64,000 nucleotides of DNA from Candidatus Yonathbacteria bacterium RIFOXYD1_FULL_52_36 (GCA_001823605.1 MHUZ01000034.1:38589-102588), one strand, 5' to 3'; positions 14,319 through 56,710 are shown, numbered from the stretch's first letter. Translations and numbers: made by a program. The notes: a model not told the origin generated them from the sequence alone.

Positions 14319-14374
14319 GCCGTTTCGAGCCTTCTCTCTCGACATGTAGGCCGGGAGCCTTACGGCTTCTACCC

Positions 14375-17582: not shown

Positions 17583-17612
17583 AAAAACGGCTCACCTGGG
17601 TGAGCCGTTTTT
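17583..17612. repeat. AACGGCTCA-family palindromic terminator (copy b) immediately 3' of rplB
   Basis: AAAAAAAACGGCTCACC-TG-GGTGAGCCGTTTTTTT. Confidence 0.85.
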
Positions 17613-27787: not shown

Positions 27788-27820
27788 AATCAAACGGCTC
27801 ACCCAAGGTGAGCCGTTTGA
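27788..27820. repeat. AACGGCTCA-family palindromic terminator (copy c) 3' of rpmB
   Basis: ATCAAACGGCTCACC-CAA-GGTGAGCCGTTTGAT. Confidence 0.85.
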
Positions 27821-42039: not shown

Positions 42040-43794
42040 TTATTCGGACACCACGCGGAAGATCTCTTCGATGCTCGTGAGCCCCTTCGCGGCTTTATAG
42101 ATACCGTCTTCGATCATCGTGATCATCTCTTCTTTCTTTGCCTGCGTTTCGATCTCGGCGGCCGTGGATCCCTTGATCACCAGCTCTTTGATCGTGGGCG
42201 ACATTTTCAAAATCTCGTGGATCCCGATGCGTCCCTTGTAGCCATCTTCACACTCATCTGATTTTTTCGCACGATAGAACGGAATGTCACCCCAATCCTG
42301 ATCATCCTTGATGATCTTCTCTTCTTTGAGCACGCCGAGCACGCGATCAAGGTCAATGATCTTGCTGAGACGTGCGATCTCATCATCGTTAAGCAAATAG
42401 CGTTCTTTGCCCGCGTCACACAAACGGCGCACGAGGCGCTGTGCAATGATCACGTTGACCGTCGAAACAATAAGGAACGGCTCAACACCCATGTCGATCA
42501 TGCGCGGGATCGCACCCGCAGCAGAGTTGGTGTGGAGTGTCGAGAGCACCAGGTGTCCCGTGAGTGACGCGTTGATTGCGAGCGATGCCGTTTCTTGGTC
42601 ACGCACCTCTCCCACCATGATGATGTCCGGGTCTTGACGCATGAGCGTACGGAGGCCGTTCGCAAAGGTGAGGCCGATCTCCGATTTCACCTGCGTCTGA
42701 TTCACGCGCGCCATTTGGTATTCGATCGGATCCTCGATCGTCGAGATGTTCACCTCGGGCGTATTCAAAATATCGAGCATTGTATAGAGCGTCGTGGTCT
42801 TTCCTGATCCCGTCGGTCCTGTGGTGAGGAGGAGTCCCACCTTTTGCTTCATGGCATCATGGATGCGCTCAAGTCCTAGGCCGTGAAAACCAAGGCCTTC
42901 GAGCGTAAATCCTGACGATGAGTCCCTCAAAAGACGCATGACGGTCTTTTCACCAAAGTATGTCGGGAGTGTCGAGACGCGGAACGATACTTTCTGATCG
43001 GCGGTCTCGATCTTGAAGCGTCCGTCCTGAGGAAGACGCTTTTCATCGAGCTTCAAGTTCGAAAGCACCTTCAAGCGTGCCGTAATGCCCGGAGCCACAT
43101 CTTTGGGGAGCACCATCGCGTCATGGAGAATGCCGTCAATGCGATACCGAATGACCATTTGTCCTTCCATCGGCTCGATATGAATATCTGACGCTCCCTG
43201 CAGAATGGCGTGGTTGAGCAGCGTATCCACGATCTTCACGATCGGCAGATCTTCAGCAAGCTCTTTCAGGTCTTTTTCTGACTTCTCGCCCCCTTCTTCA
43301 TCCGAAAGCGATTTTACCGATACGGCTTCTTTCTGAATGATGTCACCGAATTCTGACTTGAGGTCTTTTTGGTATTGGACGAGCGCCCCTTTGAGCGAAT
43401 CCTGATCGGTGAGACGGGGGAGAATCTTGAGTCCCACCTTTTTCTTGACGAATTCGATGGCCGTCAGGTTGTCGGTGTCGAGCATCGCCACCTCGAGCGC
43501 CGTGGTGGTCTTTTTGAACGCCACAATGTTGTGTTTGCGGGCGATCGGCTCCGGGATCATCGAAAGCACTTCAAAATCGATCTTCTGACCTTTGAGTGAG
43601 ACGAAGGGGATGCCGAGAATGTACGCTTCTGTTCGGCGCAGATCGTCTTCAGTGACTTTGCCATCGCTTACCAAAATTTCACCGAGGTAGCGCCGTTTGT
43701 CGTGCGCCTTCTTGAGGGCAGCATCAAGGTCAGACGAGGGAATAAGTCCCGCATCGAGGAGAAACTCACCAAGTTGTTCGTCGCGAACGTTCAT
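42040..43794 (-). CDS. pilB: type IV pilus assembly ATPase PilB (GspE family)
   Basis: N-terminal T2SSE_N domain. Walker A TGPTGSGKTTTLY, Asp and His boxes, tetracysteine motif. Confidence 0.9.
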   Translation of the reverse strand: MNVRDEQLGEFLLDAGLIPSSDLDAALKKAHDKRRYLGEILVSDGKVTEDDLRRTEAYILGIPFVSLKGQKIDFEVLSMIPEPIARKHNIVAFKKTTTALEVAMLDTDNLTAIEFVKKKVGLKILPRLTDQDSLKGALVQYQKDLKSEFGDIIQKEAVSVKSLSDEEGGEKSEKDLKELAEDLPIVKIVDTLLNHAILQGASDIHIEPMEGQMVIRYRIDGILHDAMVLPKDVAPGITARLKVLSNLKLDEKRLPQDGRFKIETADQKVSFRVSTLPTYFGEKTVMRLLRDSSSGFTLEGLGFHGLGLERIHDAMKQKVGLLLTTGPTGSGKTTTLYTMLDILNTPEVNISTIEDPIEYQMARVNQTQVKSEIGLTFANGLRTLMRQDPDIIMVGEVRDQETASLAINASLTGHLVLSTLHTNSAAGAIPRMIDMGVEPFLIVSTVNVIIAQRLVRRLCDAGKERYLLNDDEIARLSKIIDLDRVLGVLKEEKIIKDDQDWGDIPFYRAKKSDECEDGYKGRIGIHEILKMSPTIKELVIKGSTAAEIETQAKKEEMITMIEDGIYKAAKGLTSIEEIFRVVSE

Positions 43795-43914
43795 GGGTGC
43801 TTTGGTCAAAGTATACCACGACAATTCGCGCAACGCTGGGGATTAGTATGATTTTCCGATCATGCAAAAATCCCAGAAGATCATTCTGGGGAGGTCCTGG
43901 CTTCTCCAGGGAGA

Positions 43915-44112
43915 TTACTTTGTTCTTCCGTACCGTTTCTCTAGCTCTCCGGAAGCGAGTTCTTTTCCCGACCAGCGTCCAAACCGCGCACCGCATGCCT
44001 GACACGAGATTTCACTTGCCCCATCGTATCGCTCAGGGCTTCCTGGAGCATGCTCAACAAAGACCACGTTCGTGCTGTCACATTTCTTGCATTTTTCTTT
44101 TCCGTTTTCCAT
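43915..44112 (-). CDS. small zinc-ribbon protein
   Basis: CKKCDS...CQAC four-Cys pattern in 65 aa. Confidence 0.35.
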   Translation of the reverse strand: MENGKEKCKKCDSTNVVFVEHAPGSPERYDGASEISCQACGARFGRWSGKELASGELEKRYGRTK

Positions 44113-44125
44113 AAAATATTTGGTC

Positions 44126-45325
44126 TTAATTTTTCTTATTTAAGGACGATGGAACAAAACCGTTTTTCTCCAGGACATAAAATATACCCCGTAGTAAATA
44201 ATTATTGATAAAACCAATCGTGTACACCCTGCTCTTCCCGGGCACAGGACGAAGCATTTCCTTATCTTTAAGTCGCTTGAGAATGCGCGAGCGCTGAACG
44301 GGTGATTCTTTTCCGATGATCACATCGAGGTCTGATGATTTGACGCTCATTGATTTGCTTTTAACCAAAGCGGTTAAAATGCTGAACTCACGTTCAGTAA
44401 TAAGTTTTCGTTCAAGCGCATACGACAAAGACGGTATCAGAATTGTCTCGGTTATATACTTCAGATCAAGCAAGCGATCAATTTTTTCGATCTCCTCTCT
44501 CAGTCCCTCAAGAACGTACGCACACCACCGTAACACCTGTTCTTGCTCACCAGTATCCGCAAGTGCCAAGTTTGCATAGTATTCATTTCGATCCATGCAA
44601 AAGATCGCTGTCGGGTTGAGAATTCTTCCGTTATGGACCTTGAAGCCCTGCTTAATGAGCAGTGCGTAGGTAAACATACGAATTAAACGTCCGTTGCCGT
44701 TATCAAACGGGTGAATCCACGCCATACGATGATGAGAGAGTGCCGTGACCAAGAGGTCGTTCTGGGGACTAGTGTCTGCGTTCACAAAAGCAATAAGCTC
44801 CTCAAAGTAATCCGGCACTTTCACCATATCGGGTGGGATATGTGATGAACCTTGAATTCCGACATTGATCGGTCGCAGACCACCTGGGTAACGAGACCCT
44901 TCTCCGGATGGCGGTGGAGTAAGACCATCCACAATGATCTTGTGCAATTCTGAAATGTGGGCACGCGTGATTATTCCACCCTCCGTAATGGTCTCTTCAA
45001 TGAATTTAATTGCTCGCTCAATGTTAAAAATCTCTCGAATGGATTCCTCTTTGGTATCTTTCGGAACCTGGTCAATGATCTTTTCGACGAATTCTGCAAG
45101 AGTTGTATGATTCCCTTCAATACGCGCAGATCCGAGGCTCTCCATCAGCTGAAAAATATCTTTCAGCTGAAAGAAAATGTACGGCGGCACTGGTCCGCCA
45201 AGCTTTTTTACGCGCAACTTTTCAAGCTCGACAATGGTGCTGGCGAGCTCCGACCCCCACGCCGGTTCGTATATTTTTAGAGGGATTTCTTTGAATTCCC
45301 CTTTATTTACATCTTTAGATTCCAT
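44126..45325 (-). CDS. Fic/DOC family protein (AMPylase-type) with inhibitory helix motif
   Basis: Fic core HPFDNGNGRLIRM. N-terminal SARIEGN matches the (S/T)xxxE(G/N) inhibitory motif. Lower GC than the core genome. Confidence 0.85.
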   Translation of the reverse strand: MESKDVNKGEFKEIPLKIYEPAWGSELASTIVELEKLRVKKLGGPVPPYIFFQLKDIFQLMESLGSARIEGNHTTLAEFVEKIIDQVPKDTKEESIREIFNIERAIKFIEETITEGGIITRAHISELHKIIVDGLTPPPSGEGSRYPGGLRPINVGIQGSSHIPPDMVKVPDYFEELIAFVNADTSPQNDLLVTALSHHRMAWIHPFDNGNGRLIRMFTYALLIKQGFKVHNGRILNPTAIFCMDRNEYYANLALADTGEQEQVLRWCAYVLEGLREEIEKIDRLLDLKYITETILIPSLSYALERKLITEREFSILTALVKSKSMSVKSSDLDVIIGKESPVQRSRILKRLKDKEMLRPVPGKSRVYTIGFINNYLLRGIFYVLEKNGFVPSSLNKKN

Positions 45326-45432
45326 TAATTAACATTTTAAGATAAATTATCTAGTAAATCAAGTGTTTAACAAGATATCTGCTGTACGGTAATTTAACAT
45401 TCTTACATTAACGAAATTAACAGTGGCTCAAA

Positions 45433-45477
45433 AACAAACGGCTCAGCGTAGCTGAGCCGTTTGTTGAGCCGTTTAAT
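45433..45477. repeat. AACGGCTCA palindrome (copy d) with an extra right half-site. Its 26-bp core is identical to copy e.
   Basis: AACAAACGGCTCAGC-GTA-GCTGAGCCGTTTGTT then GAGCCGTTTAAT. Confidence 0.85.
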
Positions 45478-45497
45478 CCATTGCAAATACTGGCTTT

Positions 45498-45956
45498 TTA
45501 CCGGATCGTATAAAACACGTCCTTGCCGGTGGTGCCGTGCTGGCGGATATGTCCTTCTTGTTCAAGCTCGTGGAGATACCGCTCCGCGCTCGCGTCAGAG
45601 ACGCCGAGCAGAGCTTCTACATCGTTATTTTGCACTTGACCGCGCTCGGTGATGAGCGCTAAGACCCGCGCCTTGCGCGCTTCTTTCTCGGCATTCGGTT
45701 CTTTTGCATACACCACTGTCTTGGGTGCGCTTCCCTCCCCATCCTCGATCACGTATGCCGGAAGCTTGCCGCTTGCCATGAGCCAGACCACAGAACCGGA
45801 GCCCACGAACACGAGTGTGAAGAACAGATACTCTGCCGTGCCCATCTCAGGTGCTCCGGCAAAGAATTGCTTGTACGTAACAAAAAGCCAAATAGCGACG
45901 AACAACGGCGGCACGAACCGCTTCTGCCACGCCGGCAAATATACGTTCTTTTTCAT
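45498..45956 (-). CDS. membrane protein with C-terminal winged helix-turn-helix domain
   Basis: Two TM helices then a DeoR/MarR-like wHTH (ERGQVQNNDVEALLGVSDASAERYLHELEQEGHIRQ). Confidence 0.55.
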   Translation of the reverse strand: MKKNVYLPAWQKRFVPPLFVAIWLFVTYKQFFAGAPEMGTAEYLFFTLVFVGSGSVVWLMASGKLPAYVIEDGEGSAPKTVVYAKEPNAEKEARKARVLALITERGQVQNNDVEALLGVSDASAERYLHELEQEGHIRQHGTTGKDVFYTIR

Positions 45957-46100
45957 GTGATTATTGTACCGCAAAACTCCCCAGTAAATCCACAGGCTGT
46001 CCCCAAAAATCACGTCAGGGCATGATTTTGCAGCCCACGGGCTTGATATAATTTAGTTACTGGGATTAGTCGAGCCAGTACAATAAGGAACGAATAGCGT

Positions 46101-46280
46101 ATGGCAAAATATTACCTGAAGAAGGACGTGCGAGGCCAATACTACTGGATTCTCAATTCCAAGAATGGGGAAACAGTTTGCATGAGTAGTGAATCCTACC
46201 TATCCAAGGAGGGAGCAGAAAAATCCCTTAAATGGAACCAGGCAAACGGAAAAACTACTTCTGTTATCGATCTTGCATGA
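46101..46280 (+). CDS. YegP-like (DUF1508) small protein
   Basis: 59 aa, MAKYYLKKDVRGQYYWILNSKNGETVCMSSESYLSKEGAEKSLKWNQANG. RBS AAGGAA. Below the ORF-track length cutoff. Confidence 0.55.
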   Translation: MAKYYLKKDVRGQYYWILNSKNGETVCMSSESYLSKEGAEKSLKWNQANGKTTSVIDLA

Positions 46281-46415
46281 CACAAGAGGTTAATTGAGCA
46301 AACGTGCCGGGCTATAGAGATCCCGCGGAGAAGGAGAATTGATTGTGTCACGGCTACTCACCTACGGAGCTAGAAAAGCACACCTCGTTCATGGTAAAAC
46401 CCACGAAAGTGGGTT

Positions 46416-46970
46416 TTACCATTTTAAGTATTGTTTTGCCTCAACTAAGACCGCATTGCGCACTGCCTTACAGAGATTTAGTAATTTTGTTTGCTCGAGA
46501 ATCATAAAATCATTCTTTTTAGGCGTAAGTACTCCGTACCTCAAAGACTCGACTGGGTAAACCCTGATAATCTCGTTACTTAAATAAAAATCAAAGTAGT
46601 GGTGATTGAATGTTTTCCCGTTACTCTTTTGTTTAGAAAGTTTCACTTTCTTTACCCCTGCGGTTAACATAAAATCTTCACCGACCCCTTGATAATGATA
46701 TATATGATCTAACTCGTGACCAAAAGCTGACGCTCTTTTATTTATTTCCTCAATATCAAGGTTATCGTATTTCTCCCAACGCAAACACATAAACGATTTG
46801 GCATACAACTCAAGAGCATTAGAAGCAAGGAATAAGTAGGCTCCTCCAGCATCCGAAACATCATTTTTTGTCTTTTCCATCAGCGAAACACATTCGGACG
46901 CAAATTTAAAAGTTAGGTAGCGAGCTAAAAATAATTCTGCAATCTTTTTTGCATCGTTATTATTTTTCAT
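46416..46970 (-). CDS. low-GC hypothetical protein with a possible HEPN-like Rx5H motif (RASAFGHELDH)
   Basis: 184 aa, AT-rich codon usage unlike the core genome. Family call is tentative. Confidence 0.45.
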   Translation of the reverse strand: MKNNNDAKKIAELFLARYLTFKFASECVSLMEKTKNDVSDAGGAYLFLASNALELYAKSFMCLRWEKYDNLDIEEINKRASAFGHELDHIYHYQGVGEDFMLTAGVKKVKLSKQKSNGKTFNHHYFDFYLSNEIIRVYPVESLRYGVLTPKKNDFMILEQTKLLNLCKAVRNAVLVEAKQYLKW

Positions 46971-47052
46971 GATTTTAAAATAAATTAAAATTATCTATTT
47001 GTATGTTTTTATACAACTCAAATAAAAATTCAATGCGGGATTCTTTGGTGGG

Positions 47053-47829
47053 CTATCTCCATCCACGCCCCCTTTTTACTATTTTTTCGTGTGTCTGCTT
47101 CTTGGGGCATGCCGTTAGGCTTGTTTCAAATTGCTCATTGCACACCGAGCATATACACATGCCTTCCTTTCCTAAAAGCGGAGCTCCATTAATCTCATAC
47201 AGCAGGATCAAAAAATCCCTCAAGGTCACGCTCGCCCACTCACAAAAATTTTTAGTTAATTGAACTTTATACGATCTGCGCCCTTTCCATTTATACTTAT
47301 ATATGCGAACCGCGCCTTTGCGATTTTTACTTAAACGTTTAAAGGCAGCAAATGATTTTTCATCCTTCCCTACAAAATCATAGCCATCATTATGTGCAAA
47401 AAAATTCCTTATTTTATTTAAATCAGTAACCTTTTCCAATTCCTGCGGAATAACCCCATTGCATACACTCTCCAAATACTTAAAAGATCGCCAAGTTCCA
47501 TTCCCATCAAGATCTCGCACCTTAATGTTATGTACCTGCTCTTCCATTACGCACAGATTGGCAAGATATCTTTCAAAATCACTGTAGAGCACAAGGAGGT
47601 ACGCGCCATACCAGTGATTTAAATTTGCAAAATTAGCCCAATGCTGATCTGCTTCTCGTTCCAGCAACAACCTCCTGCTTTTTGAGATACTGCCATAATG
47701 TTCTGTAAAAATGCTCAAGTACTCTGACTTACGATGATTTATATTCTCGTCGATGAGATTAAGCAGATCGAAATGCTTTGAAAGAAAGTCTTCTTCAATC
47801 CACTTTACTTCGCTTTGATCCAAAAACAT
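47053..47829 (-). CDS. Abi_2/HEPN-like abortive-infection-family protein
   Basis: IRNFFAHNDGY matches the RNxxAH (Rx4-6H) HEPN/Abi_2 motif. Low GC. Cys-rich C-terminus. Confidence 0.55.
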   Translation of the reverse strand: MFLDQSEVKWIEEDFLSKHFDLLNLIDENINHRKSEYLSIFTEHYGSISKSRRLLLEREADQHWANFANLNHWYGAYLLVLYSDFERYLANLCVMEEQVHNIKVRDLDGNGTWRSFKYLESVCNGVIPQELEKVTDLNKIRNFFAHNDGYDFVGKDEKSFAAFKRLSKNRKGAVRIYKYKWKGRRSYKVQLTKNFCEWASVTLRDFLILLYEINGAPLLGKEGMCICSVCNEQFETSLTACPKKQTHEKIVKRGRGWR

Positions 47830-47842
47830 ACAAGGGGTAAAG

Positions 47843-50593
47843 CTAAGTTACTGCTACCATCTTTCTTTTTACGGAAGTTTTCTTGTTTTCGCTTGCAGTG
47901 TATTTGCAATACAGTTCAAACAGGAACTCGATTCTCTCCTCTTTATTCGAAAACTTTTTGCCGTAGCAGGCGTCAACAGCGCGGTCGAGGTCGGTGTGGG
48001 CTTTGACCAGGTCGGGTGGCATTGTGTTGGGGTCATAGAGATCAGCGAGAGAACTCTCGGGAAACCGAGCTCGCGCATCGAGTACTCTTTGCGCACACTC
48101 CTCTACTTTTTTCCTGTGCTCGTCCGACACACTCTCGGGCCATGGAAAATTATTGTAAACGATATCTTTTGAGTAGCGATACCGACTTTCAAGCCGTCCG
48201 CAGGTGTATCTCACCCATGTCATATGCATAAGTGACTGCAAGATACCAAGGTGAAACAAGGTCGCCCCAGACCCGATAAGGCAGAGGTTGCTCGTAATAA
48301 CACTCTCATCCATAAAACCCAAGGGGATATAAGCCCTCCTTTCCGATGAGACACTGGGAATAAGCAGATATCGCCCATTTGGAAAATTTTCTACATGGAA
48401 TCGTGTCGGCGTTTCCGCAAGTTTTTGCGTTGGTGGACTCACGCTATCTAATCGAAGTTTTCGCACAGCTTCAATGCGCTTTAATACTTCAGGCATTTCA
48501 CGTAATTCATGGGGCGGAGTATCTCCAAGCCACAAACACCAACGCTCATACCCATTCAAGAACTCATCTGCTCCGATCCACTTACGAAACAATTTCTCAC
48601 TTTTTGGCTCATGTTTTATAAATTCATTCTTTTCCTCGGGTGTAAAAAGGTAATTCCCACCATCGATCGGCTTGTTCCCAATTCCGATATTTGGAACATC
48701 TTCCACGATCGGCTTCGAGCGTGATTCCACAAACACGTCTTCGCCTGCAACAAGATATGCATTAATATGCTCCACCTCTTTTTCCTTCGGCTCGCTTTTT
48801 ATCGTCTCATATTCGTAGAGATATTTCTTTGGAGTATCCACGCACGCAAAGCCAACAATCACGCAGTACACCGCCGCCACCCCTGGCGCGTCATTGTTCC
48901 ACTTGAAAGTCTGGTGCGCAAAATGAATAATGATGCCGTATTTTTCTTTGAGACGCTTCCACAGAATACCCACTTGCTCACCTTGGCAGATCGAGTTGGT
49001 GGACACAAACGCAGTTTTGATATTGGTGCCAACCATATACCTTGACGCCTTTTCATACCACGCTGTTACAAAATCGAGATTACCTGCGCCTTTTGCATTA
49101 TCAAAGATATTAAGAAATGCTTCTTTTTGTTCTTTTTCCATTAACCGTGCTCCAACAAACGGCGGATTGCCAAGAATATACGAGAGTTTGTGTTTTGGCA
49201 CAACCTCTTCCCAATCTTTTGTAAGCGCATTGTCGTTCACGATCGTCGCGGGCTCACGAAGCGGGATGCGTGCGTACGGCTTGCCAAACTTCTCTGACAA
49301 AAGCTGGTTCATTTGATGATCGGCGAGATACATCGCTACGCGGGCGATCAGTGCGGGAAATTCTTCGATCTCTATTCCGTAGAACTGATTGACGTTGATG
49401 CGCGAAATGTCTTCAACCCCCAATATTGCTATCTGGTCGTCTTTTTTCTTTCGCAAAAGAATTTCGAGTTCCAGTTTTCGCAGTTCACGGTACGCAACAA
49501 CGAGAAAGTTTCCACACCCGCACGCAGGATCAAGAAACGTGAGGTTTGCAAGCTTATTGTGAAACGCATCGAGCTTCTTGGCGTCATACTTCACCTGATC
49601 GAATTCAACATGCAATTCATCAAGAAAGAGCGGTTGAATGACCTTCAAAATATTCTTTTCGGAAGTGTAGTGCGCACCAAGTTGCCTGCGTGTGTTCTCA
49701 TCCATCATCCCTTGGAACAGGGATCCGAAGATTGATGCAGATATCTGTGACCAATCAAAACTACAACATTTCAATAACTTGAGATACGCGGTTGCGTCCA
49801 AGGAAACAGGCGCGATCTGCTCTGCGAAAATACCGCCGTTGATGTATCCGAACATCATCAACTGCTCGTCTAAATTTGTCTGCCTCTTTTCCTTTGGCGT
49901 ATTGAGGATGTGGAAAATTTGCATCAGATGAATCCCCAGATCGGACCCGTCGTGATTGATTCGATTTTCTACGTATGAGCGAAAATGATTTTTAGGGAAA
50001 ATACCTGTGTCGTCGGCAAAAAGACAAAAGAGGATGCGGATGAGAAAAACTTCGAGGTCGTGCCCACTGTACCCCGTCTTGGCAAGTTCGTTATGGAAAT
50101 CAGCCATCAACTTCACGGCTTCAATGCTCACCTCCTCTTCTTTTTCGTAGGCGCGGACAGTGTATCCAGATATAAACCCAAAGAGATCTATGTTTTTGTG
50201 GAGCTCTTTAAGTAAAAATTCTTCTTGAGTGTTCTTGTCCAGATCGTACAATCGTATTTTTTCAAAGTCAGAAACGACTACATAGCGCGGAAGTTCCACG
50301 TCTTTCAACCCGGGGAAATAATCCTTCGCTTGTGTGTACGCCTTGTCCAAATTTTTGCCGCGAGTTTTGTGTTCCGCAAGCATCACGCCTTTCCATAGAA
50401 CATCAATGAATCCCTGTGCCCCACCCTGCTTTTTTACAAAGTGCTCAAAGGAAGCGACGCGTCGGCGTGGAACGCCAAACACCTCAAAGAAGCCGTCCCA
50501 AAAGCTTTTTGCCTCTGCGTCTTCGTTGGATTCTTGCTCCCATTCGTGCGCAAAGGTGATTGCGCGATTTCGGATTTCGTTGATGCTTATCAT
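47843..50593 (-). CDS. MmeI-family type IIL/IIG restriction-modification enzyme (fused endonuclease, N6-adenine methyltransferase and TRD)
   Basis: N-terminus MISINEIRNRAITFAHEWEQESNEDAEAKSFWDGFFEVFGVPRRRVASFEHFVKK closely parallels MmeI. Methyltransferase motif IV LGNPPFVGA. 916 aa. Confidence 0.85.
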   Translation of the reverse strand: MISINEIRNRAITFAHEWEQESNEDAEAKSFWDGFFEVFGVPRRRVASFEHFVKKQGGAQGFIDVLWKGVMLAEHKTRGKNLDKAYTQAKDYFPGLKDVELPRYVVVSDFEKIRLYDLDKNTQEEFLLKELHKNIDLFGFISGYTVRAYEKEEEVSIEAVKLMADFHNELAKTGYSGHDLEVFLIRILFCLFADDTGIFPKNHFRSYVENRINHDGSDLGIHLMQIFHILNTPKEKRQTNLDEQLMMFGYINGGIFAEQIAPVSLDATAYLKLLKCCSFDWSQISASIFGSLFQGMMDENTRRQLGAHYTSEKNILKVIQPLFLDELHVEFDQVKYDAKKLDAFHNKLANLTFLDPACGCGNFLVVAYRELRKLELEILLRKKKDDQIAILGVEDISRINVNQFYGIEIEEFPALIARVAMYLADHQMNQLLSEKFGKPYARIPLREPATIVNDNALTKDWEEVVPKHKLSYILGNPPFVGARLMEKEQKEAFLNIFDNAKGAGNLDFVTAWYEKASRYMVGTNIKTAFVSTNSICQGEQVGILWKRLKEKYGIIIHFAHQTFKWNNDAPGVAAVYCVIVGFACVDTPKKYLYEYETIKSEPKEKEVEHINAYLVAGEDVFVESRSKPIVEDVPNIGIGNKPIDGGNYLFTPEEKNEFIKHEPKSEKLFRKWIGADEFLNGYERWCLWLGDTPPHELREMPEVLKRIEAVRKLRLDSVSPPTQKLAETPTRFHVENFPNGRYLLIPSVSSERRAYIPLGFMDESVITSNLCLIGSGATLFHLGILQSLMHMTWVRYTCGRLESRYRYSKDIVYNNFPWPESVSDEHRKKVEECAQRVLDARARFPESSLADLYDPNTMPPDLVKAHTDLDRAVDACYGKKFSNKEERIEFLFELYCKYTASENKKTSVKRKMVAVT

Positions 50594-50676
50594 GGGATGA
50601 TCTCCAGTTTTTGACTAGACCTCCTATCCAAACCGTTTCTTCATAATCCCACAAAATAAGCCTTAAATCAACGGCG

Positions 50677-50718
50677 GAAAACGGCTCAGGGAACGGCTCA
50701 GCGTAGCTGAGCCGTTTA
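50677..50718. repeat. AACGGCTCA palindrome (copy e) with an extra left half-site. Mirror of copy d.
   Basis: AAAACGGCTCAGGG then AACGGCTCAGC-GTA-GCTGAGCCGTTTAA. Confidence 0.85.
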
Positions 50719-50839
50719 ATTGTTCTGGTTTTCAGGGGTTTCCAGCCGGGCGGAAAACCATGCCGTGGCTCACATTGACAAAATCCGTTTCATAAATTAT
50801 AATTTGAATACGTTTCAACGTCCACAAGGAGATATTCCG

Positions 50840-51040
50840 ATGCGTTGCAAGATCTTTGTATTCGAACTTGTTTCCAGCATGATGGAGGAAAAAATTAACC
50901 GCTGGTTGGCGGAGAATCCTAACATCAAGATATTGAATATGGCCCAAAGCTCAGCAAGTGGAAACACGAGCGGCGACCCAAGAGATGGTGAAAATGTTGA
51001 GACGACTCTCACTATCTTCTACGCCCCCTTTTGTCCTTAG
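50840..51040 (+). CDS. small hypothetical protein (66 aa)
   Basis: AAGGAGA RBS 7 nt upstream. Strong terminator immediately downstream. Confidence 0.45.
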   Translation: MRCKIFVFELVSSMMEEKINRWLAENPNIKILNMAQSSASGNTSGDPRDGENVETTLTIFYAPFCP

Positions 51041-51050
51041 AAGATCATTC

Positions 51051-51088
51051 GTCCGGTACGCCAATTGGCGTACCGGACATTTTGTTTG
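51051..51088 (+). terminator. rho-independent terminator
   Basis: GTCCGGTACGCC-AATT-GGCGTACCGGAC followed by ATTTTGTTT. Confidence 0.8.
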
Positions 51089-51113
51089 AGATCGAGGCAT
51101 TTCATGCGCCATA

Positions 51114-51141
51114 TTGACAATAGGTGTGGATTTGCTATACT
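51114..51141 (+). promoter_or_regulatory. sigma70-like promoter of nusA (TTGACA, 16-nt spacer, TATACT)
   Basis: Consensus -35 and -10 hexamers read directly from the sequence. Confidence 0.6.
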
Positions 51142-51149
51142 ATATGAGT

Positions 51150-51333
51150 GAGTTGTTCAGGTGCGCCCCGGTCCGTTCCGCCAAGGAAACGGCCTTTTTT
51201 ATAAGCGACGTAGGGCGAACGAAATGGAAGCGTACTCGTTTACATTTCTGAGCCGAGGAGCTTATATGGATGCCCTAGTGTTGCGGAGCAACCCTAGGGC
51301 ATCCATATTTAAACAAAATTACTACAAACTATC
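51150..51333 (+). promoter_or_regulatory. structured nusA leader: terminator-like hairpin plus U-tract (CCGTTCCGCCAAGGAAACGGCCTTTTTTAT) and a perfect 11-bp hairpin (GGATGCCCTAG...CTAGGGCATCC)
   Basis: Stems read directly. Candidate attenuator. Confidence 0.45.
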
Positions 51334-52701
51334 ATGATGGACCTCAAAGTATTGAACTCGGCACTCCACCAGCTCGAAGAAGAGCGCGGGATCCCGAAAG
51401 ACAAGATCGTCGACGCGATCGAGCAGGCGCTCGCCGCGGCGTACAAAAAAGACTACGGCAAAAAAGGTCAGATCGTGCGCGCGCACTTTGACCTTTCTTC
51501 AGGCATGACCGAATTCGCTCAGGTCAAAGTCGCCGTGGATGAATCCATGGTGCGCATGGAGGAAGAAGGCGAGGAAGACGAAGTGACCGAGCGCGCGGAA
51601 ATCGCCGACGGCGAAGAAGTCCTCCCCCGCTTTAATCCTGAACAACATATTCTCATCGAAGACGCCCGCCGCATCAAAAAAGACGTAATCCCCGGCGAAG
51701 AACTCGTTTTTGCTTTGGAAACCAAGGACGATTACGGCCGCATCGCCGCACAGACCGCCAAGCAGGTCATCATTCAGCGCATCCGTGAGGCAGAGAAAGT
51801 TTCCGTCATGGAGGAGTACGGCAAGCGCGAAGGAGAGATCATCTCCGGAACCGTACAGCGCATTGAGCGCGGCAATATCTTTGTTGACCTGGGCAAGGCA
51901 ACCGGAATCCTTCCGTATGAGGAACAGATCCGCAATGAGCGCTACCGCCAAGGCGAGCGCGTTCGTGCCTACCTTTTCTCAGTCGAGGAAACACCCCGTG
52001 GTATCAACCTCCGCCTCTCACGCTCGCACCCGATCTTTCTCCGCAAGCTCTTCGAGATCGAAGCGCCCGAGATTGCATCCGGTGTTGTCGAGATCAAGGC
52101 GATCGCCCGCGAAGCAGGTTCGCGCTCAAAGATCGCGGTCTTCTCGAACGATAGCCACGTGGATCCTGTCGGTTCGTGTGTCGGTCAGCGCGGTGTACGC
52201 GTTTCGACCGTCATGAGCGAGCTCGGCGGTGAAAAGATCGACATTATCGAATGGTCAGCCGACCCGGTGCAATTCATTGAGGACGCCCTTTCTCCGGCAC
52301 GCGCACAGTCTGTCGAGATCTTCGAGGCCGAAAAGCGCGCCACGGTAAAGGTATCCGGCGACGAGCTCTCGCTTGCGATCGGTAAAGGAGGCCAGAATGT
52401 ACGCCTTGCGGCAAAGCTCACTGGCTGGAGGATCGACATCCAAGGCGACGCGCCAACAACCGTCCCTGTTGATGAAACACTTGCCCAAGAAGTTGCGGTA
52501 ATGAACGGCGCCAAGGAGATCGAGGAAGTTGAGGAGTCTGCACACGAAGACGAGCTCATCGCCGAAGAGATCCAGGAGCGAAACAACTCGACCGACGAGG
52601 ATGCTGACGCTTCGTCCAAAACCCCCGAGGAGGTTGAGGGATCGATCGATGATCTCAAAGCAGAGTCCGAGGAGGCACGCGACGAAGAGGAAAAGGCGTA
52701 G
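51334..52701 (+). CDS. nusA: transcription termination/antitermination factor NusA with acidic C-terminal tail
   Basis: NusA N-domain, S1 domain, two KH domains (GKGGQNVRLAAKLTGWRIDI). Confidence 0.9.
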   Translation: MMDLKVLNSALHQLEEERGIPKDKIVDAIEQALAAAYKKDYGKKGQIVRAHFDLSSGMTEFAQVKVAVDESMVRMEEEGEEDEVTERAEIADGEEVLPRFNPEQHILIEDARRIKKDVIPGEELVFALETKDDYGRIAAQTAKQVIIQRIREAEKVSVMEEYGKREGEIISGTVQRIERGNIFVDLGKATGILPYEEQIRNERYRQGERVRAYLFSVEETPRGINLRLSRSHPIFLRKLFEIEAPEIASGVVEIKAIAREAGSRSKIAVFSNDSHVDPVGSCVGQRGVRVSTVMSELGGEKIDIIEWSADPVQFIEDALSPARAQSVEIFEAEKRATVKVSGDELSLAIGKGGQNVRLAAKLTGWRIDIQGDAPTTVPVDETLAQEVAVMNGAKEIEEVEESAHEDELIAEEIQERNNSTDEDADASSKTPEEVEGSIDDLKAESEEARDEEEKA

Positions 52702-52758
52702 CGGCGCATGTGCGGTCATCCGCGTGTATACTACGTACTACTAACCACAAACTAAACC

Positions 52759-53289
52759 ATGAACCTTTGGCACGATATTGAAGCAGGAAAGAACGCCCCC
52801 GAAACGGTGAACGTCATCGTCGAGATCAACAAGGGGTCAAAGAATAAATACGAGATCGACAAAGAAACGGGCATGATCGCGCTTGACCGTGTGGCGCACA
52901 CCACGCAAGACTTTCCGTTTGACTATGGCTTCATCCCGAAGACACTGTGGGATGACGGCGACGCCGTGGACGTGGTGCTCCTCACCACGCACCCACTCGT
53001 TCCGGGAATTCTCGTCAAAGCGCGGCCGGTTGCCATCATGCGCATGATCGATTCAGGAGAAGGTGATGACAAAATCATCGCCGTACCCAAAGACGATCCG
53101 CGCTGGGAACACGTAAAGGACATCAAAGACATCAACCCGCATACGATCAAAGAGATCGAGCACTTCTATTCCACATACAAAAAACTCCAGCACAAGGAGG
53201 TTACCATTGAAGGATTTGAGGGAGTTGCCGCCGCACACGAAGCAGTCGAGCGCGGAAAAACGCTCTATCACGAAAAATTCGGCGCGTAG
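52759..53289 (+). CDS. ppa: inorganic pyrophosphatase (family I)
   Basis: VIVEINKGSKNKYEID...DGDAVDVVLL signature. Confidence 0.9.
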   Translation: MNLWHDIEAGKNAPETVNVIVEINKGSKNKYEIDKETGMIALDRVAHTTQDFPFDYGFIPKTLWDDGDAVDVVLLTTHPLVPGILVKARPVAIMRMIDSGEGDDKIIAVPKDDPRWEHVKDIKDINPHTIKEIEHFYSTYKKLQHKEVTIEGFEGVAAAHEAVERGKTLYHEKFGA

Positions 53290-53325
53290 CACGCATAGCC
53301 CACGAAACTGTTGCTCACCAACGCA

Positions 53326-53356
53326 AAAACACCCGCCCCAAGCGGGTGTTTTTGCG
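53326..53356 (+). terminator. rho-independent terminator after ppa
   Basis: AAAAACACCCGC-CCCAA-GCGGGTGTTTTTG. Confidence 0.8.
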
Positions 53357-53471
53357 TTTGGGGCAGTTATCAACAGCACCATTCCATTATGTAGCGCAAA
53401 ACCGCTATAATGAGTCTGAGGTAATAACTTCACTGTTTAGTAATTATTCGTTTTAGTTTTGAATACGCACA

Positions 53472-54362
53472 ATGACATCGACAGATAAAAAATTGGGTAT
53501 CGCACTTGCGCTCGTCGGCGCACTTGCGTTCGGAGCATCGGCATTCGCGGAGGAAATGTCGACTGACGGCTCAGTGAGCGTTGACGCTACCGTAAAGACG
53601 GAGGCCACGGTAACAGCACCGACCCCGGAAGATGTACGCGCGAAGATGGAAGCACGCGCACGTGAAGCGCGCGAACTTGCCGAGAAGAAACGCCTAGAGG
53701 CAGAAGCAAAGCGCGGTGAATTGCAGGCAAAAAAGGCCAGCACCACGCAAATGATCGCGGAAAAGCGCACGGTCATGGAGCAGAAGCGTGAAGATTTTCA
53801 AGACAAGCGTGCAAGCACGACGGAGGCCTTGAAAGGAAAGCGTGAGGAATTGCAGGTAAAGCGTGCAAGCACCACCGAGGCTATCAAGCAAAAGCGTGAG
53901 GAAGTGCGCAACAACCTTGAAGAGAAGCGCAAAGAGATCATCCTTGCGCACGCAAACCGCATGGAGGAACGTTTCAACGCCGCCTTTGACCGCTTCGACA
54001 AACTTGCCGATCGCATCGAGGAACGCTTGATCAAACTTGAAGCAGCAAACAAAAATATCCAGACCGCAACGGCTCATTCGCTCGTTGACCAAGCTCGGCT
54101 CAAGATCGAAGAGGGACGGCTCCTTTCAGCAGAGCTCTCTGCTGAAGTAGAACTTGCGATAGTATCTGAGGACCCCAAGGCAGCATTCGACGGTGCACGT
54201 GGTGCCATAAACGAAGTTATCGGGGTAATGAAAACAGCTCAGAAGCTCTTGGTGGACGCAGTGAAGTCGATCAAGGCAAATACGCCTGACGAGCTCGAAA
54301 ATGACGATGACGACAACGGTTCAACCGCTACGACGACCACAGCCACAACAACGGCTCAGTAA
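53472..54362 (+). CDS. secreted coiled-coil repeat protein with Thr-rich C-terminus
   Basis: Signal peptide (KKLGIALALVGALAFGASAFA), triplicated KRASTTEA-x-K-x-KREE heptad-like repeats, ends TATTTTATTTAQ. Confidence 0.6.
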   Translation: MTSTDKKLGIALALVGALAFGASAFAEEMSTDGSVSVDATVKTEATVTAPTPEDVRAKMEARAREARELAEKKRLEAEAKRGELQAKKASTTQMIAEKRTVMEQKREDFQDKRASTTEALKGKREELQVKRASTTEAIKQKREEVRNNLEEKRKEIILAHANRMEERFNAAFDRFDKLADRIEERLIKLEAANKNIQTATAHSLVDQARLKIEEGRLLSAELSAEVELAIVSEDPKAAFDGARGAINEVIGVMKTAQKLLVDAVKSIKANTPDELENDDDDNGSTATTTTATTTAQ

Positions 54363-54390
54363 ACTATTTATTATCTAACCCTTATCACGT

Positions 54391-54744
54391 ATGGATGAAC
54401 AGAATGCAACTCAGACCCCTGTGCAACAGCCACAAAATCAGGGCGTGCAGCAGGACGTAGCAGCAAATGTGTTCGATGAGAAATCAGGCGGCATTGGCCC
54501 GATTGTCGGTGTGATCATTGTGGTCGTACTCCTCATCATTGGCGGCGTATACTACTATATGAACATGCAGGGAGTCGCGGGACCGGCAATGGAAGTGCCG
54601 ACCGGCGCAGATCCAACAGCTGAGGTGCTTCGCCAGCAGAGCGACTCAACGAACGTTGCTGATATTGAGGCAGACCTCAATTCAACAAACCTTGATGTTC
54701 TCGTGGAGGACATTCAGGCGATGGAACTCCAGCTCGCCCAGTAA
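54391..54744 (+). CDS. small single-pass membrane protein, Gln-rich N-terminus
   Basis: 117 aa, one TM helix (IGPIVGVIIVVVLLIIGGVYYY). Confidence 0.45.
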   Translation: MDEQNATQTPVQQPQNQGVQQDVAANVFDEKSGGIGPIVGVIIVVVLLIIGGVYYYMNMQGVAGPAMEVPTGADPTAEVLRQQSDSTNVADIEADLNSTNLDVLVEDIQAMELQLAQ

Positions 54745-54764
54745 CAGGACGCAGCTTCTTCTCA

Positions 54765-54800
54765 AAAAACACCCCGATGTCCTCGGGGTGTTTTTTGTTT
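54765..54800 (+). terminator. rho-independent terminator
   Basis: AAAAACACCCCGA-TGTCC-TCGGGGTGTTTTTTG. Confidence 0.8.
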
Positions 54801-54839
54801 GCAGAACAAAGAAAAACACGTTACACTGCCCGCACATAT

Positions 54840-54925
54840 ATAGCTCCCCCGTCAGGGGCCGAGGGAGGGGAGCTATAGTAGCTCCTCGGCTCGGAAATGG
54901 GAATGAGTACATTCCCATTTCGCTC
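54840..54925 (+). promoter_or_regulatory. structured tig leader with nested hairpins (GCCGAGG...CCTCGGC enclosing GAGCTA-TAG-TAGCTC, then GAAATGGGAATG-AGTA-CATTCCCATTTC)
   Basis: Perfect stems read directly, immediately upstream of the tig ATG. Confidence 0.4.
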
Positions 54926-54930
54926 GCTCT

Positions 54931-55995
54931 ATGTCGCTAATGAAACAAAAAATGTCATACACCATAAATATAAAAGAGATTCCGGAGACCTCTGAGGTTG
55001 AGGTGACGGGAGAGATTGCTACGGATTCATTTGCCGTCTACGAACCGGGAGTTGTGGCGTACTTCGCACAGACCGCAACCCTCCCAGGATTTCGCAAAGG
55101 TCATGTCCCCGAAAAGATCATCCGTGAGCGCATGGGTGACGATACCATTCTTCACGAAATGGCTGAGCGCGCGATCGCGGATGCATATCCCAAGATCATT
55201 CAGGAAAAGAGTCTCGAGCCCTTGGGGCGCCCTGAGGTGGCGCTCACCAAAGTCGTCCGCGGAAATCCGCTTGGATTTACGATCCGCTTTGGGGTAATGC
55301 CGAAATTCTCACTCCCCGACTACAAAGCGCTCGCCGCAAAAGTACCCGCGGAGCCGGTAGTGGCCGAGGAGAAGGAGATCGATGATGCGCTCGAAGAACT
55401 TCGCAAACGCGTGGCGCGTTTTGACCAATCAAAGAACGGTGGTTCGCCGACACAAGAGATCCCTGACGAATTACTCCCGACGCTTGATGATGCATTCGCC
55501 GAGCACGTTGCCGGAGTCAAGACGCTTGCGGAACTCCGCGAGAAAATGCGCGCCGGGATCATCGAAGAAAAGAATCTTCGCACGCGAAGCACCCGCCGCA
55601 GTAAGATCCTTGACGCGATCCTTTCTGCAACAACGATCGCGGTCCCGCCCATTGTGGTTGCGGGAGAAACTGACGTGTTGCTTGGAGAGCTCCGCACCGA
55701 CATCGAACGTCTGGGTATCACCTTTAGCGATTATCTGAAGCACGCAGGGAAAACCGAAGAGGAGTTACGCAAAGATGTTGCTCCTGACGCCGGAAAACGT
55801 GCTCGCATTCAGTTCATCTTGAATGCAATCGCCGAGAAGGAAAACATCCTCCCCGACAAAGCTATCCTTGAGAGCGAGACTGCGCGCCTGATGCAAGCAT
55901 ATCCCGATGCGGAGAAGACGCGCGTTATGGTCCATGTGGGCACCAAGCTCGTGAATGAGCAGACACTTAAGCTCCTTGAGAACGCAGGGGCATAG
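54931..55995 (+). CDS. tig: trigger factor lacking the FKBP-type PPIase domain
   Basis: N-domain signature [10 protein letters not shown] (GFRxGxxP ribosome-binding loop) joined directly to the C-terminal chaperone domain. 354 aa. Confidence 0.75.
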
Positions 55996-56667: not shown

Positions 56668-56710
56668 AACAAAACAAACGGCTCAGCATTGCTGAGCCGT
56701 TTGTTTTGTT
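56668..56710. repeat. AACGGCTCA-family palindromic terminator (copy f) shared by convergent clpP and the giant surface-protein gene
   Basis: AACAAAACAAACGGCTCAGC-ATT-GCTGAGCCGTTTGTTTTGTT. Confidence 0.85.

Follow-up and report, generated by a model that had tools for sequence, protein, structure and literature searches.

The locus between the genes pilB and nusA of Candidatus Yonathbacteria, an uncultured groundwater bacterium, raises the question of whether its genes form one acquired antiviral system or several modules gathered at one site. The locus was analysed within a stretch of 64,000 nucleotides, referred to here as the window. The 5′ end of pilB lies near positions 43794–43833 and nusA starts at 51334. 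The 7.5 kb between them hold an ordinary cluster of anti-virus genes, which is probably a mosaic, horizontally acquired defence islet at a hotspot for variable cargo in Paceibacteria. All open reading frames were found where an earlier note, made from the sequence, had placed them (Table 1).

Table 1. Coordinates of the features of the pilB–nusA islet in the window.
Feature	Position	Strand	Basis
Whole variable region, pilB–nusA cargo	43834–51333		Synteny and gap sizes in 45 related loci; composition
65-aa zinc-ribbon protein	43915–44112	-	Two CxxC pairs
399-aa class-II-type Fic protein	44126–45325	-	Pfam Fic 1.4e-13; PADLOC SoFic 4.3e-38
Left palindrome and half-site	45436–45474		26-mer at 45437–45462
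171-aa (152 aa in the NCBI annotation) membrane protein with C-terminal wHTH	45498–46013	-	Pfam DUF977, HTH_IclR
59-aa single-domain YegP/DUF1508 protein	46101–46280	+	Pfam PF07411 8.6e-08
Perfect hairpin with 14-bp stem, ATGGTAAAACCCAC GAAA GTGGGTTTTACCAT	46391–46422		Between the convergent YegP and 184-aa genes
184-aa orphan protein	46416–46970	-	Family alignment, gene contexts
258-aa HEPN-domain protein	47053–47829	-	Homologue family, motif, fold, PADLOC matches of relatives
916-aa MmeI-family type IIL/IIG RM enzyme	47843–50593	-	Pfam, PADLOC, 5hr4 alignment, motifs
Right palindrome	50679–50717		Half-site at 50680, 26-mer at 50692–50717
Small transcription unit	50775–51078	+	Promoter, 66-aa ORF, terminator

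In 45 related loci from Paceibacteria, the gene pairs pilC–pilB and nusA–ppa lie side by side in divergent orientation, and the gap between pilB and nusA varies from 39 nt to 8.6 kb. Sixteen of the 45 gaps are shorter than 400 nt. The gaps contain unrelated cargo, including an integrase, an IS200 transposase, HepT, AbiEii, YafQ, and surface proteins, and none of the genes of the islet is present in any of them. This variability indicates that the junction is a hotspot and that the islet was acquired. The base composition of the region differs from that of its surroundings, with a GC content of 0.443 between 43834 and 51333 and of 0.517 in the rest of the window. Individual islet genes have GC contents of 0.36–0.46, compared with 0.524 ± 0.025 for 39 background genes, from which the islet composition deviates by 2.6 to 6.6 SD. 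The drop in GC seen earlier is deepest at 46.4–47.9 kb, where 400-nt windows have values of 0.34–0.40 and where the lowest 1-kb windows of the entire 64 kb are located; the background is about 0.52, and not about 55% as previously estimated. Contigs that carry close homologues of the MmeI-family enzyme or of the 184-aa protein are mostly of low GC as well (0.32–0.41, with two at 0.44 and 0.48). The two closest MmeI homologues, of 76% and 70% identity, are on contigs with GC contents of 0.41 and 0.38, and the contigs with homologues of the 184-aa protein span 0.32–0.48. The proposal of an acquired, defence-rich island is upheld by its absence from the 45 related gaps, its deviant composition, PADLOC matches to type IIG RM and SoFic-like models, and the presence of a HEPN protein.

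The 916-aa protein matches the Pfam domains MmeI_N, MmeI_hel, MmeI_Mtase, MmeI_TRD, and MmeI_C, all far above cutoff, with E values from 1e-22 to 2e-91, and the PADLOC type IIG RM model with E = 0. Its residues 2–908 align to residues 3–912 of MmeI from Methylophilus methylotrophus (PDB 5HR4; 1026 bits), the namesake of a family that includes NmeAIII, and the five domains of the two proteins are collinear over their full length. In one chain they correspond in order to an N-terminal nuclease, a helical spacer, a gamma-class N6-adenine methyltransferase, a target recognition domain, and a C-terminal domain. The nuclease motif D64-VLWKGVMLA-EHK (D-X9-EXK of the PD-(D/E)XK type) is intact, as are the methyltransferase motifs DPACGCG at residue 355 (SAM motif I) and NPPF at residue 476 (motif IV). 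The D-X9-EXK and NPPF motifs and the specificity loop GRLESRYRYS are shared with MmeI. Judged by its sequence, the protein is a full-length, motif-intact orthologue of MmeI, in agreement with the earlier identification of an MmeI-like RM enzyme.

The target site of the enzyme was predicted from the target recognition domain, as the earlier note had suggested. Its specificity residues are S/N/L/E/R/R, and the residue code of PMC2731914, which gives positions 3–6 of the site, yields the predicted recognition sequence NNCGAC. Residues S751, N773, and L774 replace E, N, and A of MmeI, so that CGAC is predicted instead of CRAC at positions 3–6. By analogy with MmeI, the enzyme would methylate one strand of this asymmetric site and cut unmodified invading DNA about 20 nt away from it (20/18 nt, by homology to MmeI).

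The 258-aa protein matches no curated model in Pfam, NCBIfam, PADLOC, or PHROGs, and its identification comes from its relatives. A family of 57 remote homologues was found among 1.84e9 representative proteins. HEPN proteins are recognized by an Rx4-6H motif, a polar residue (N, D, or H) after the arginine, and a conserved acidic residue upstream (PMC3710099). The 258-aa protein contains the motif R141-N-F-F-A-H146, in which the arginine is followed by N142, and E86 upstream; across 55 family sequences, R141 and H146 do not vary, and conservation reaches at least 90% at N142 and E86. The predicted structure, modelled with confidence, has an all-alpha HEPN fold. Among the 55 family sequences, the Pfam profile HEPN_RiboL-PSP matches seven (best E value 3.9e-4) and HEPN_Cthe2314 three, with HEPN_MAE_28990 also matched, whereas the PADLOC defence model RTasHEPN, labelled DRT, matches 37 (best 1.2e-11). 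There is no reverse transcriptase near the islet gene. The 258-aa protein is a genuine HEPN protein from an uncurated family. Its previous designation as Abi_2 does not hold, since Abi_2 (AbiD/AbiF, PF07751) did not match the protein at E ≤ 0.1 or any of 54 relatives at E ≤ 0.01.

The best sequence match of the 258-aa protein in the PDB is HepS of the Gifsy-1 prophage (PDB 9OIJ/9OIK; PMC13043305), at the RNxxxH motif. Both proteins are about 200–260 aa long and have a single HEPN domain, the RNxxxH motif, and an upstream glutamate. A C-terminal cluster of cysteines (C225, C227, C230, and C241) is absent from the relatives of the 258-aa protein and distinguishes it from stand-alone HEPN RNases such as HepS and RTasHEPN. 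By analogy with HepS, the 258-aa protein is predicted to be an abortive-infection RNase, which would act independently of metal ions, be triggered by infection, cut tRNA or mRNA, and so abort the infection. It is a stand-alone HEPN protein, and its gene is probably co-transcribed with the MmeI-family gene.

The earlier note counted the 184-aa protein as a second HEPN-like protein. The motif behind this suggestion is present: E54-x3-K58 (of the form Ex3[KR]) and R79-x5-H85 (Rx4-6H) are invariant in ten sequences of the family, which has 12 members. Other invariant residues include N51, R64, and W65 and the segments YHYQGVG and SLRYG. However, the residue following R79 is alanine, which is non-polar, and neither profile searches nor fold comparison detected similarity to HEPN proteins, so that of the two candidates only the 258-aa protein is confirmed as HEPN. 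The 184-aa gene has the lowest GC content of the islet genes (0.359). The protein is tentatively suggested to be another toxin or an enzyme of effector type, acting through the invariant residues E54, K58, R79, and H85.

The 184-aa and 258-aa genes are adjacent, co-oriented, 82 nt apart, and both very AT-rich, and the earlier note suggested that they may include an uncharacterised pair. They were considered as a toxin–antitoxin or two-component abortive-infection pair. No gene of the 258-aa family was found near seven other genes of the 184-aa family, which stands alone beside differing neighbours. Around 67 MmeI homologues there was no match to the 184-aa family and a single weak match, located upstream, to the 258-aa family. 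Comparison of the profiles of the two proteins indicated no relation (probability 2.5%). Because the two families never occur together in these other contexts, they are not a pair; this reading is largely refuted and is considered very improbable.

Coupling of the MmeI-family enzyme to the genes behind it requires separate consideration. The HEPN gene is co-oriented with the MmeI-family gene and starts 13 nt past the stop codon of the latter, and one terminator follows the 184-aa gene, which would be the last gene of an MmeI–258–184 transcription unit. HEPN genes are well known to occur linked with RM systems and DOC/Fic toxins, at least 16 HEPN clades being linked to RM, and the analogy of such genes to PrrC has already been proposed (Anantharaman et al. 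2013, PMC3710099). As with PrrC–EcoprrI and other RM-linked HEPN genes, the HEPN gene of the islet directly adjoins an RM gene and shares its mobile neighbourhood with a Fic/DOC toxin. An RM-guarded backup system would unite MmeI, HEPN, and possibly the 184-aa protein in one functional unit: MmeI would silence the HEPN RNase, and a phage anti-restriction factor disabling MmeI would release it. Where the sequence extends far enough downstream, about half of the loci with MmeI homologues have an open reading frame in the same orientation within −28 to +50 nt, and RM genes adjoin the 184-aa family gene in three of five informative contexts. The 13-nt spacing and this frequent tight linkage could reflect functional coupling rather than independent modules.

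Nevertheless, PrrC is an ABC-ATPase–HEPN protein within a type I RM operon, whereas the islet has a small HEPN protein encoded behind a single-chain type IIL enzyme. The association of HEPN and RM found in the islet is not conserved. The 258-aa family is absent beside other MmeI homologues except for the weak upstream match among the 67 loci. Most of its members match the HEPN profile associated with reverse transcriptases and not with RM, and the one relative with an annotation, carried by a Bacillus plasmid, stands by itself between recombinases. Defence islands yield variable neighbours without physical coupling. Furthermore, a natural variant with a split MmeI gene (contigs L084 and L095) has kept its HEPN gene intact, which speaks against a need for MmeI to restrain HEPN. 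An RM-guarded unit of the PrrC–EcoprrI type is therefore rather unlikely. The preferred reading is that the modules of the islet were assembled by several events and do not constitute one obligate system.

The position directly downstream of MmeI homologues is occupied by unrelated genes. In the window it contains the new HEPN family and then the 12-member orphan; elsewhere it contains HEPN_AbiU2, a PLD nuclease (PLDc_2), SIR2 (SIR2_2), or a short pAgo (Piwi), which are known effectors, or DUF2726. The position might represent a hypervariable effector slot of MmeI-family enzymes, with occupants acting as second-line abortive-infection effectors under the guard of the RM enzyme, like PrrC under that of EcoprrI, but this generalization is considered unlikely.

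The Fic protein consists of Fic_N and Fic domains and a C-terminal wHTH-like region. It carries the active-site motif HPFDNGNGRLIR at residue 205, which is of the HxFx(D/E)GNGRxxR type with asparagine in place of D/E, and, at residue 66, SARIEG, an auto-inhibitory motif of the (S/T)xxxE(G/N) type. The inhibitory motif is intact, as had been noted, and both Fic and Fic_N are matched in Pfam. The PADLOC match to SoFic extends over residues 55–368 and covers positions 53–349 of the 361 in the profile. The protein shares its domain layout and both motifs with SoFic, a single-gene Fic defence protein of class II with an N-terminal inhibitory helix. In contrast, the score against the NCBIfam SoFic equivalog is 33.9 bits compared with a cutoff of 550, showing that the protein is not an orthologue of SoFic; it also has Asn for Asp/Glu and is followed by a zinc-ribbon gene. 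On the strength of the one PADLOC model, it is a candidate SoFic-like defence protein.

The zinc-ribbon gene is 13 nt downstream of the Fic gene on the same strand and always adjoins it in contigs of the same population. Zinc-ribbon and Lar-like profiles match its product below threshold, and the two CxxC pairs agree with its earlier description. The Fic protein may be a separately promoted, auto-inhibited, SoFic-like AMP-transferase with this small zinc-ribbon protein as its partner. The C-terminal wHTH of the 171-aa membrane protein and the assignment of the 59-aa protein to YegP/DUF1508 (32.4 bits, cutoff 22) were confirmed. Next to nusA, a consensus promoter TTGACA-17-TATAAT (50775–50803) precedes the 66-aa ORF (50840–51040) and a terminator hairpin (51051–51078); the 66-aa product has weak PHROG matches, all to families of unknown function. 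The membrane-wHTH, YegP, and 66-aa genes are probably passengers.

Two identical palindromes frame the segment from the membrane-wHTH gene to the MmeI-family gene. The 26-mer occurs exactly twice (zero copies are expected by chance), 1–2 nt from the positions 45435 and 50691 reported before, and the extra half-sites facing the islet, GAGCCGTTTAAT (45466) and AACGGCTCAGG (50680), are present, giving an imperfect inverted repeat of 39 nt whose arms are 85% complementary. In the window, six intergenic hairpins share a stem, the two palindromes among them, and five of the six are at gene 3′ ends with T-runs. Read on the minus strand, the left copy consists of the half-site, the hairpin, and GTTTTTG, 24–60 nt past the stop codon of the membrane-wHTH gene, and it is therefore the terminator-like hairpin of that gene. 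The right copy is terminator-like on the plus strand, where it is followed by TTTAATTGTTCTGGTTTT, but has no plus-strand gene upstream. This orphan hairpin separates the divergent MmeI-family and 66-aa genes and may keep antisense read-through from reaching the 66-aa/nusA side. The perfect hairpin with the 14-bp stem is unrelated to this CGGCTCA family and is probably the end of the MmeI–258–184 transcription unit.

Genome-specific repeated hairpins are known as REP/BIME-like elements and as the uptake-sequence pairs of Neisseria and Haemophilus, which double as terminators. The family in the window resembles them in its many intergenic copies with one stem, mostly at gene 3′ ends, but no REP-associated transposase was seen in the 64 kb. 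The islet palindromes come from the genome's own set of terminator-like hairpins and do not mark where a mobile element ends.

The earlier note saw this layout as consistent with palindrome-targeted insertion or recombination, a reading in which copies of the genome palindrome served as insertion sites for a 5.2-kb cassette (45463–50691) or recombined to move it. The two islet copies are identical including their 3-nt loop, in which the other four copies differ, and the two have therefore probably undergone some duplication or gene conversion. The mirrored half-sites, the right copy with no gene to terminate, and a contig (L100) that begins at the left palindrome point in the same direction. 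A strain variant has a left hairpin with the same stem at the same place and another loop, and the left–right identity is therefore specific to this strain. However, the domain search detected no integrase, transposase, or other recombinase in the islet, there is no tRNA in the window, and no target-site duplication was found apart from the palindrome itself. The low-GC tract is a mosaic that is not coextensive with the bracketed segment: the Fic gene (GC 0.446) is outside the bracket, whereas the membrane-wHTH gene inside it is native-like (GC 0.543, GC3 0.657). The only strain variant found (L092) breaks at about 45757, inside the membrane-wHTH gene and not at the hairpin. The layout with three half-sites recurs at 14287, outside the islet, and the combination of direct loops with inverted half-sites is not what a simple duplication, direct or inverted, would leave. 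The search for an empty site among same-population contigs with islet genes or nusA (23, 13, and 15 contigs read, 16 distinct places shown) identified none. Insertion targeted to the palindromes is thus improbable. As copies of the genome's hairpin family, the palindromes may nonetheless have served as homology for recombination.

The islet overturns no current ideas and follows the pattern expected of a defence island. Bacteria of the Candidate Phyla Radiation have tiny genomes and few CRISPR systems, which makes their investment in defence informative. The junction of pilB and nusA is documented as a hotspot for variable cargo across Paceibacteria and could be mined for further defence genes. 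The analysis brings out the family of the 258-aa protein as an uncurated family of stand-alone HEPN proteins with a confident structure model. It further shows that MmeI-family genes are often followed, in tight linkage, by a gene that is highly variable. The 184-aa family is very rare and recurs beside RM genes; if MmeI-family enzymes do carry an effector slot, it would be a new RM-associated effector or regulator.

The island (43834-51333) is flanked by the minus-strand genes pilC-pilB, ending at about 43.8 kb, and the plus-strand genes nusA-ppa, starting at position 51334. All open reading frames (ORFs) that the earlier note had described were recovered at the same coordinates. The GC content of the island is 0.443 versus 0.517 in the rest of the window, and all the lowest 1-kb GC windows of the whole 64 kb are contained in 46.0-47.3 kb. 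The genes of the 184-aa protein (0.359), the 258-aa protein (0.393), YegP (0.422), Fic (0.446), the 66-aa ORF (0.453), and the MmeI-type enzyme (0.458) differ in their GC contents; background ORFs (n = 39) have a GC content of 0.524 +/- 0.025. The gene encoding the TM-wHTH protein is native-like (GC 0.543, GC3 0.657), which makes the island mosaic. The GC content also dips, more mildly (to ~0.445), at 15750-16250, inside a 794-aa gene (14375-16759).

The window proteins were mapped onto 80 nusA loci, selected as one genome per species. A pilB gene (at least 60% identity) is divergent from nusA and positioned upstream of it in 45 of these loci, where the two genes are 39 nt to 8.6 kb apart. The gap is shorter than 400 nt and geneless in 16 loci. 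None of the island genes of the window occurs in the pilB-nusA gaps of the 45 related loci. The cargo found there is diverse, with CARDB/PKD surface proteins, pilins, HepT, AbiEii, YafQ, and GIY-YIG as well as a tyrosine integrase and an IS200 transposase; the integrase, the transposase, and toxin-antitoxin genes are present in some species. The GC content of the gaps in relatives is within about 0.06 of that of their flanks, whereas the cargo of the window is 0.07 lower overall. The two closest MmeI homologues (76% and 70% identity) are encoded on contigs with GC contents of 0.41 and 0.38, and contigs with homologues of the 184-aa protein have GC contents of 0.32-0.48. The gap survey and the GC data therefore identify the pilB|nusA junction as a variable-cargo hotspot across Paceibacteria. 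The cargo of the window is acquired, probably from lower-GC organisms. A phage collection contained no nucleotide match to the island. The observation of the earlier note is essentially correct, and its interpretation of the region as a defence island is supported. Neither of the outcomes that the note named as refuting it was observed: the two small proteins were not assigned to unrelated housekeeping families, and none of the 45 related loci has the same layout at native GC.

The exact 26-mer repeat near the ends of the 5.2-kb core was confirmed at 45437-45462 and 50692-50717, with a chance expectation of none. The extra half-sites are also present, and jointly form a 39-nt imperfect inverted repeat. 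The earlier note considered the palindromes consistent with palindrome-targeted insertion or recombination. However, they belong to a set of six full hairpins in the 64-kb window with the stem AAACGGCTCA(C/GC)...TGAGCCGTTT, all of which are intergenic (Table). Five of the six are positioned directly past the 3' end of a gene, and each of these has a T-run after it on the strand concerned. The left island hairpin belongs to the TM-wHTH gene as its terminator-like structure. The right one has plus-strand polarity without an upstream plus-strand gene, and is thus an orphan. Related Paceibacteria loci covering 1.23 Mb lack the AAACGGCTCA stem and have hairpins with stems of unrelated sequence; the hairpin family is therefore lineage-specific. 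Since its copies have a common stem and type IV pilus genes are encoded in the same window, the family could conceivably have a REP-like or DNA-uptake-sequence-like role.

Table. Positions of shared-stem hairpins and of the 66-aa ORF unit in the window, and neighbours of 184-family genes on other contigs
Feature	Coordinates	Description
Shared-stem hairpin	14287-14324	Half-site and hairpin layout also present
Shared-stem hairpin	17586-17609	
Shared-stem hairpin	27793-27817	
Shared-stem hairpin, left island	45437-45474	
Shared-stem hairpin, right island	50680-50717	
Shared-stem hairpin	56677-56702	
66-aa ORF unit	50775-51078	Adjoins RM gene; perfect sigma-70-type promoter TTGACA-17-TATAAT; strong 12-bp-stem terminator
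184-family gene, L088		After Eco57I/TaqI_C-type methyltransferase and 161-aa unknown protein; before Panacea toxin-antitoxin module
184-family gene, L089		After MjaI restriction endonuclease
184-family gene, L101, L104		Upstream neighbour DnaX or nothing

A strain variant (L092/L085, Logan SRR3989314_19445) is 100% identical to the window over 45757-54897. Identity drops to about 66% over 45520-45756, in the half of the TM-wHTH gene that encodes the wHTH, and the sequences are unrelated further left. The recombination breakpoint is therefore located inside the TM-wHTH gene, away from the palindrome. The hairpin of the variant has the same stem as the left palindrome of the window and the loop CCCGGGG; the contig stops short of the replacement of Fic. 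The exact identity of the left and right 26-mers is specific to the strain of the window, a hint that the hairpins took part in gene conversion or recombination. However, a cassette bounded by the palindromes is very improbable, because the island contains no recombinase, the window contains no tRNA, no target duplication was found, and the boundaries in GC content do not match the palindromes. Furthermore, searches for an empty site, made with the 184-aa protein, NusA, and Fic, recovered no contig that lacks the island. The idea of palindrome-targeted insertion is not supported.

All five MmeI Pfam domains are found in the 916-aa protein, which also matches the PADLOC type IIG model (E = 0) and can be aligned end-to-end with MmeI (5hr4) with a score of 1026 bits. 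Its catalytic motifs are intact, including the nuclease motif D64-X9-EHK, the SAM motif DPACGCG, and the catalytic NPPF. The residue code for the specificity of the MmeI family, validated experimentally by Morgan and Luyten (PMC2731914), was applied to the alignment of the 916-aa protein with MmeI (5hr4). The residues S/N at the equivalents of MmeI E751/N773 specify C at position 3, as in NmeAIII, L/R at the equivalents of A774/R810 specify G at position 4, and E/R at the equivalents of E806/R808 specify C at position 6. The predicted recognition site of the enzyme is NNCGAC. None of the 16 NNCGAC hexamers tested in the window is notably under-represented (the lowest is GCCGAC, z = -1.6), a result that carries no information where a host methylates its own sites. 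In a population variant (L084/L095), a 21-nt change and a SNP relative to 50416-50446 split MmeI into 49 and 846 aa, and the HEPN, 184-aa, and Fic genes are intact. Judging from its sequence, the variant looks like a natural inactivation of the RM enzyme.

HEPN active sites are defined by the RNxxxH motif and an upstream acidic residue (PMC3710099), both of which are present in the 258-aa protein. Curated libraries contained no match for the protein itself, and a word-index homology search found no relatives. When 1.84 billion representative proteins were scanned exhaustively with HMMER, 57 weak relatives emerged, most of them 200-240 aa long. In the alignment of the family, R141 and H146 are invariant, and N142, E86, C93, D106, G111, and Y118-L119 are nearly invariant. 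Weak Pfam matches of the family members include HEPN_RiboL-PSP (7 of 55), HEPN_Cthe2314, and HEPN_MAE_28990, and the PADLOC profile RTasHEPN, labelled DRT, matches 37 of 55 (best 1.2e-11). The AlphaFold2 model calculated with the family alignment has a pLDDT of 83.5 and a pTM of 0.76. The top PDB sequence match, at the motif, is HepS. We conclude that the 258-aa protein is a HEPN protein from a family still uncurated in Pfam. The motif, family profiles, and model thus bear out the previous HEPN-like label for this protein, but the label stays putative for the 184-aa protein, and the 258-aa protein does not belong to Abi_2. Among characterised proteins, its closest analogue by mode of action is HepS, a lone HEPN protein that both detects phage and cuts tRNA anticodon loops (PMC13043305), and we infer nuclease activity of the 258-aa protein. 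The C-terminal cysteine cluster C225/C227/C230/C241 is absent from the relatives. The sole annotated relative is encoded on a Bacillus plasmid, where its gene stands alone with recombinase genes on both sides.

A hypothetical protein of Candidatus Yonathbacteria bacterium RIFOXYC1_FULL_52_10 (GCA_001823595.1, contig MHUX01000019.1) has the same sequence as the 184-aa protein, which places the organism among the Parcubacteria/Paceibacteria of the Candidate Phyla Radiation. The 184-aa family comprises just 12 members in 5.8 billion protein clusters, and a profile search enlarged it by only two. The residues N51, E54, K58, R64, W65, R79, and H85 and the motifs YHYQGVG and SLRYG are invariant. E54-x3-K58 and R79-x5-H85 resemble the two HEPN motifs, although R79 is followed by alanine. 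No library matches any family member, and a Pfam search of all members at E <= 10 returned nothing. AlphaFold2 prediction from 10 sequences was poor (pLDDT 63.7), and a Foldseek search of the PDB with the model gave no match. A PDB profile search with the family found a tRNA methyltransferase only, which was dismissed as a chance match. A relationship to the 258-aa family was rejected (hhalign probability 2.5%). The 184-aa protein encoded beside the HEPN homologue from the Bacillus plasmid is unrelated to the family, and its length is coincidental. In the window, the 184-aa gene follows those of MmeI and the HEPN protein. RM genes adjoin the 184-family gene in three of five informative contexts, which is beyond chance expectation as a rough inference, with no statistic computed. 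The genomic contexts of the family are suggestive. An unrelated metagenomic contig with a 184-family gene (L102, GC 0.36) contains at 1965-1990 a hairpin with a ACGGCTCA/TGAGCCGT stem, the same as that of the palindrome family of the window.

The MmeI and HEPN genes are separated by 13 nt, and the HEPN and 184-aa genes by 82 nt. A perfect hairpin (46391-46422), with a stem unrelated to the palindromes, overlaps the stop codon of the 184-aa gene, which suggests that the three genes are on a single transcript. The 184-aa and 258-aa proteins had been proposed to form a pair. However, a 184-family gene is present in none of 67 metagenomic MmeI-homologue loci, a 258-family gene in one, as a weak match upstream, and no 258-family gene was found near other 184-family genes in the contexts examined. 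Since the families are never neighbours elsewhere, the pair is not supported. About half of the MmeI-homologue loci with enough downstream sequence have a co-oriented ORF at -28 to +50 nt from the MmeI stop. The ORFs 3' of MmeI homologues encode HEPN_AbiU2, PLDc_2, SIR2_2 with HATPase_c_4, a Piwi-domain protein, DUF2726, SieB-like and membrane proteins, and a 157-aa PD-(D/E)xK-like protein (motif identified by eye; Pfam match sub-threshold). A PrrC-like guard, in which MmeI restrains the HEPN protein, is possible but unsupported, and the intact HEPN gene beside the split MmeI argues against the enzyme being needed as a restraint. The data are most simply read as clustering of defence genes in an island, with a variable slot behind MmeI-type genes.

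The Fic protein contains the HPFDNGNGRLIR motif and, towards its N-terminus, the inhibitory motif SARIEG. It matches the PADLOC SoFic model over nearly its full length (4e-38) and is far under the NCBIfam SoFic cutoff, which makes it a putative SoFic-like protein, not an orthologue. A 65-aa zinc-ribbon gene is positioned 13 nt after Fic, and YegP consists of one DUF1508 domain. Homology searches with the 66-aa ORF were uninformative, and no HTH or other domain was detected; its product could be a small regulator. Copies of an approximately 80-nt element at 51197-51276 (+) and 54866-54945 (-), 79% identical and in inverted orientation, are located upstream of nusA and of the trigger-factor gene. 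A hairpin with 21-bp arms (51264-51308) comes after the copy at nusA. The element has no Rfam match, and no Rfam families were found at 43-52 kb.

The clustering of RM, HEPN, and Fic genes has been described in general terms (PMC3710099). Their occurrence together in a hotspot is an already known theme, represented here with one uncurated HEPN family and one rare orphan family.
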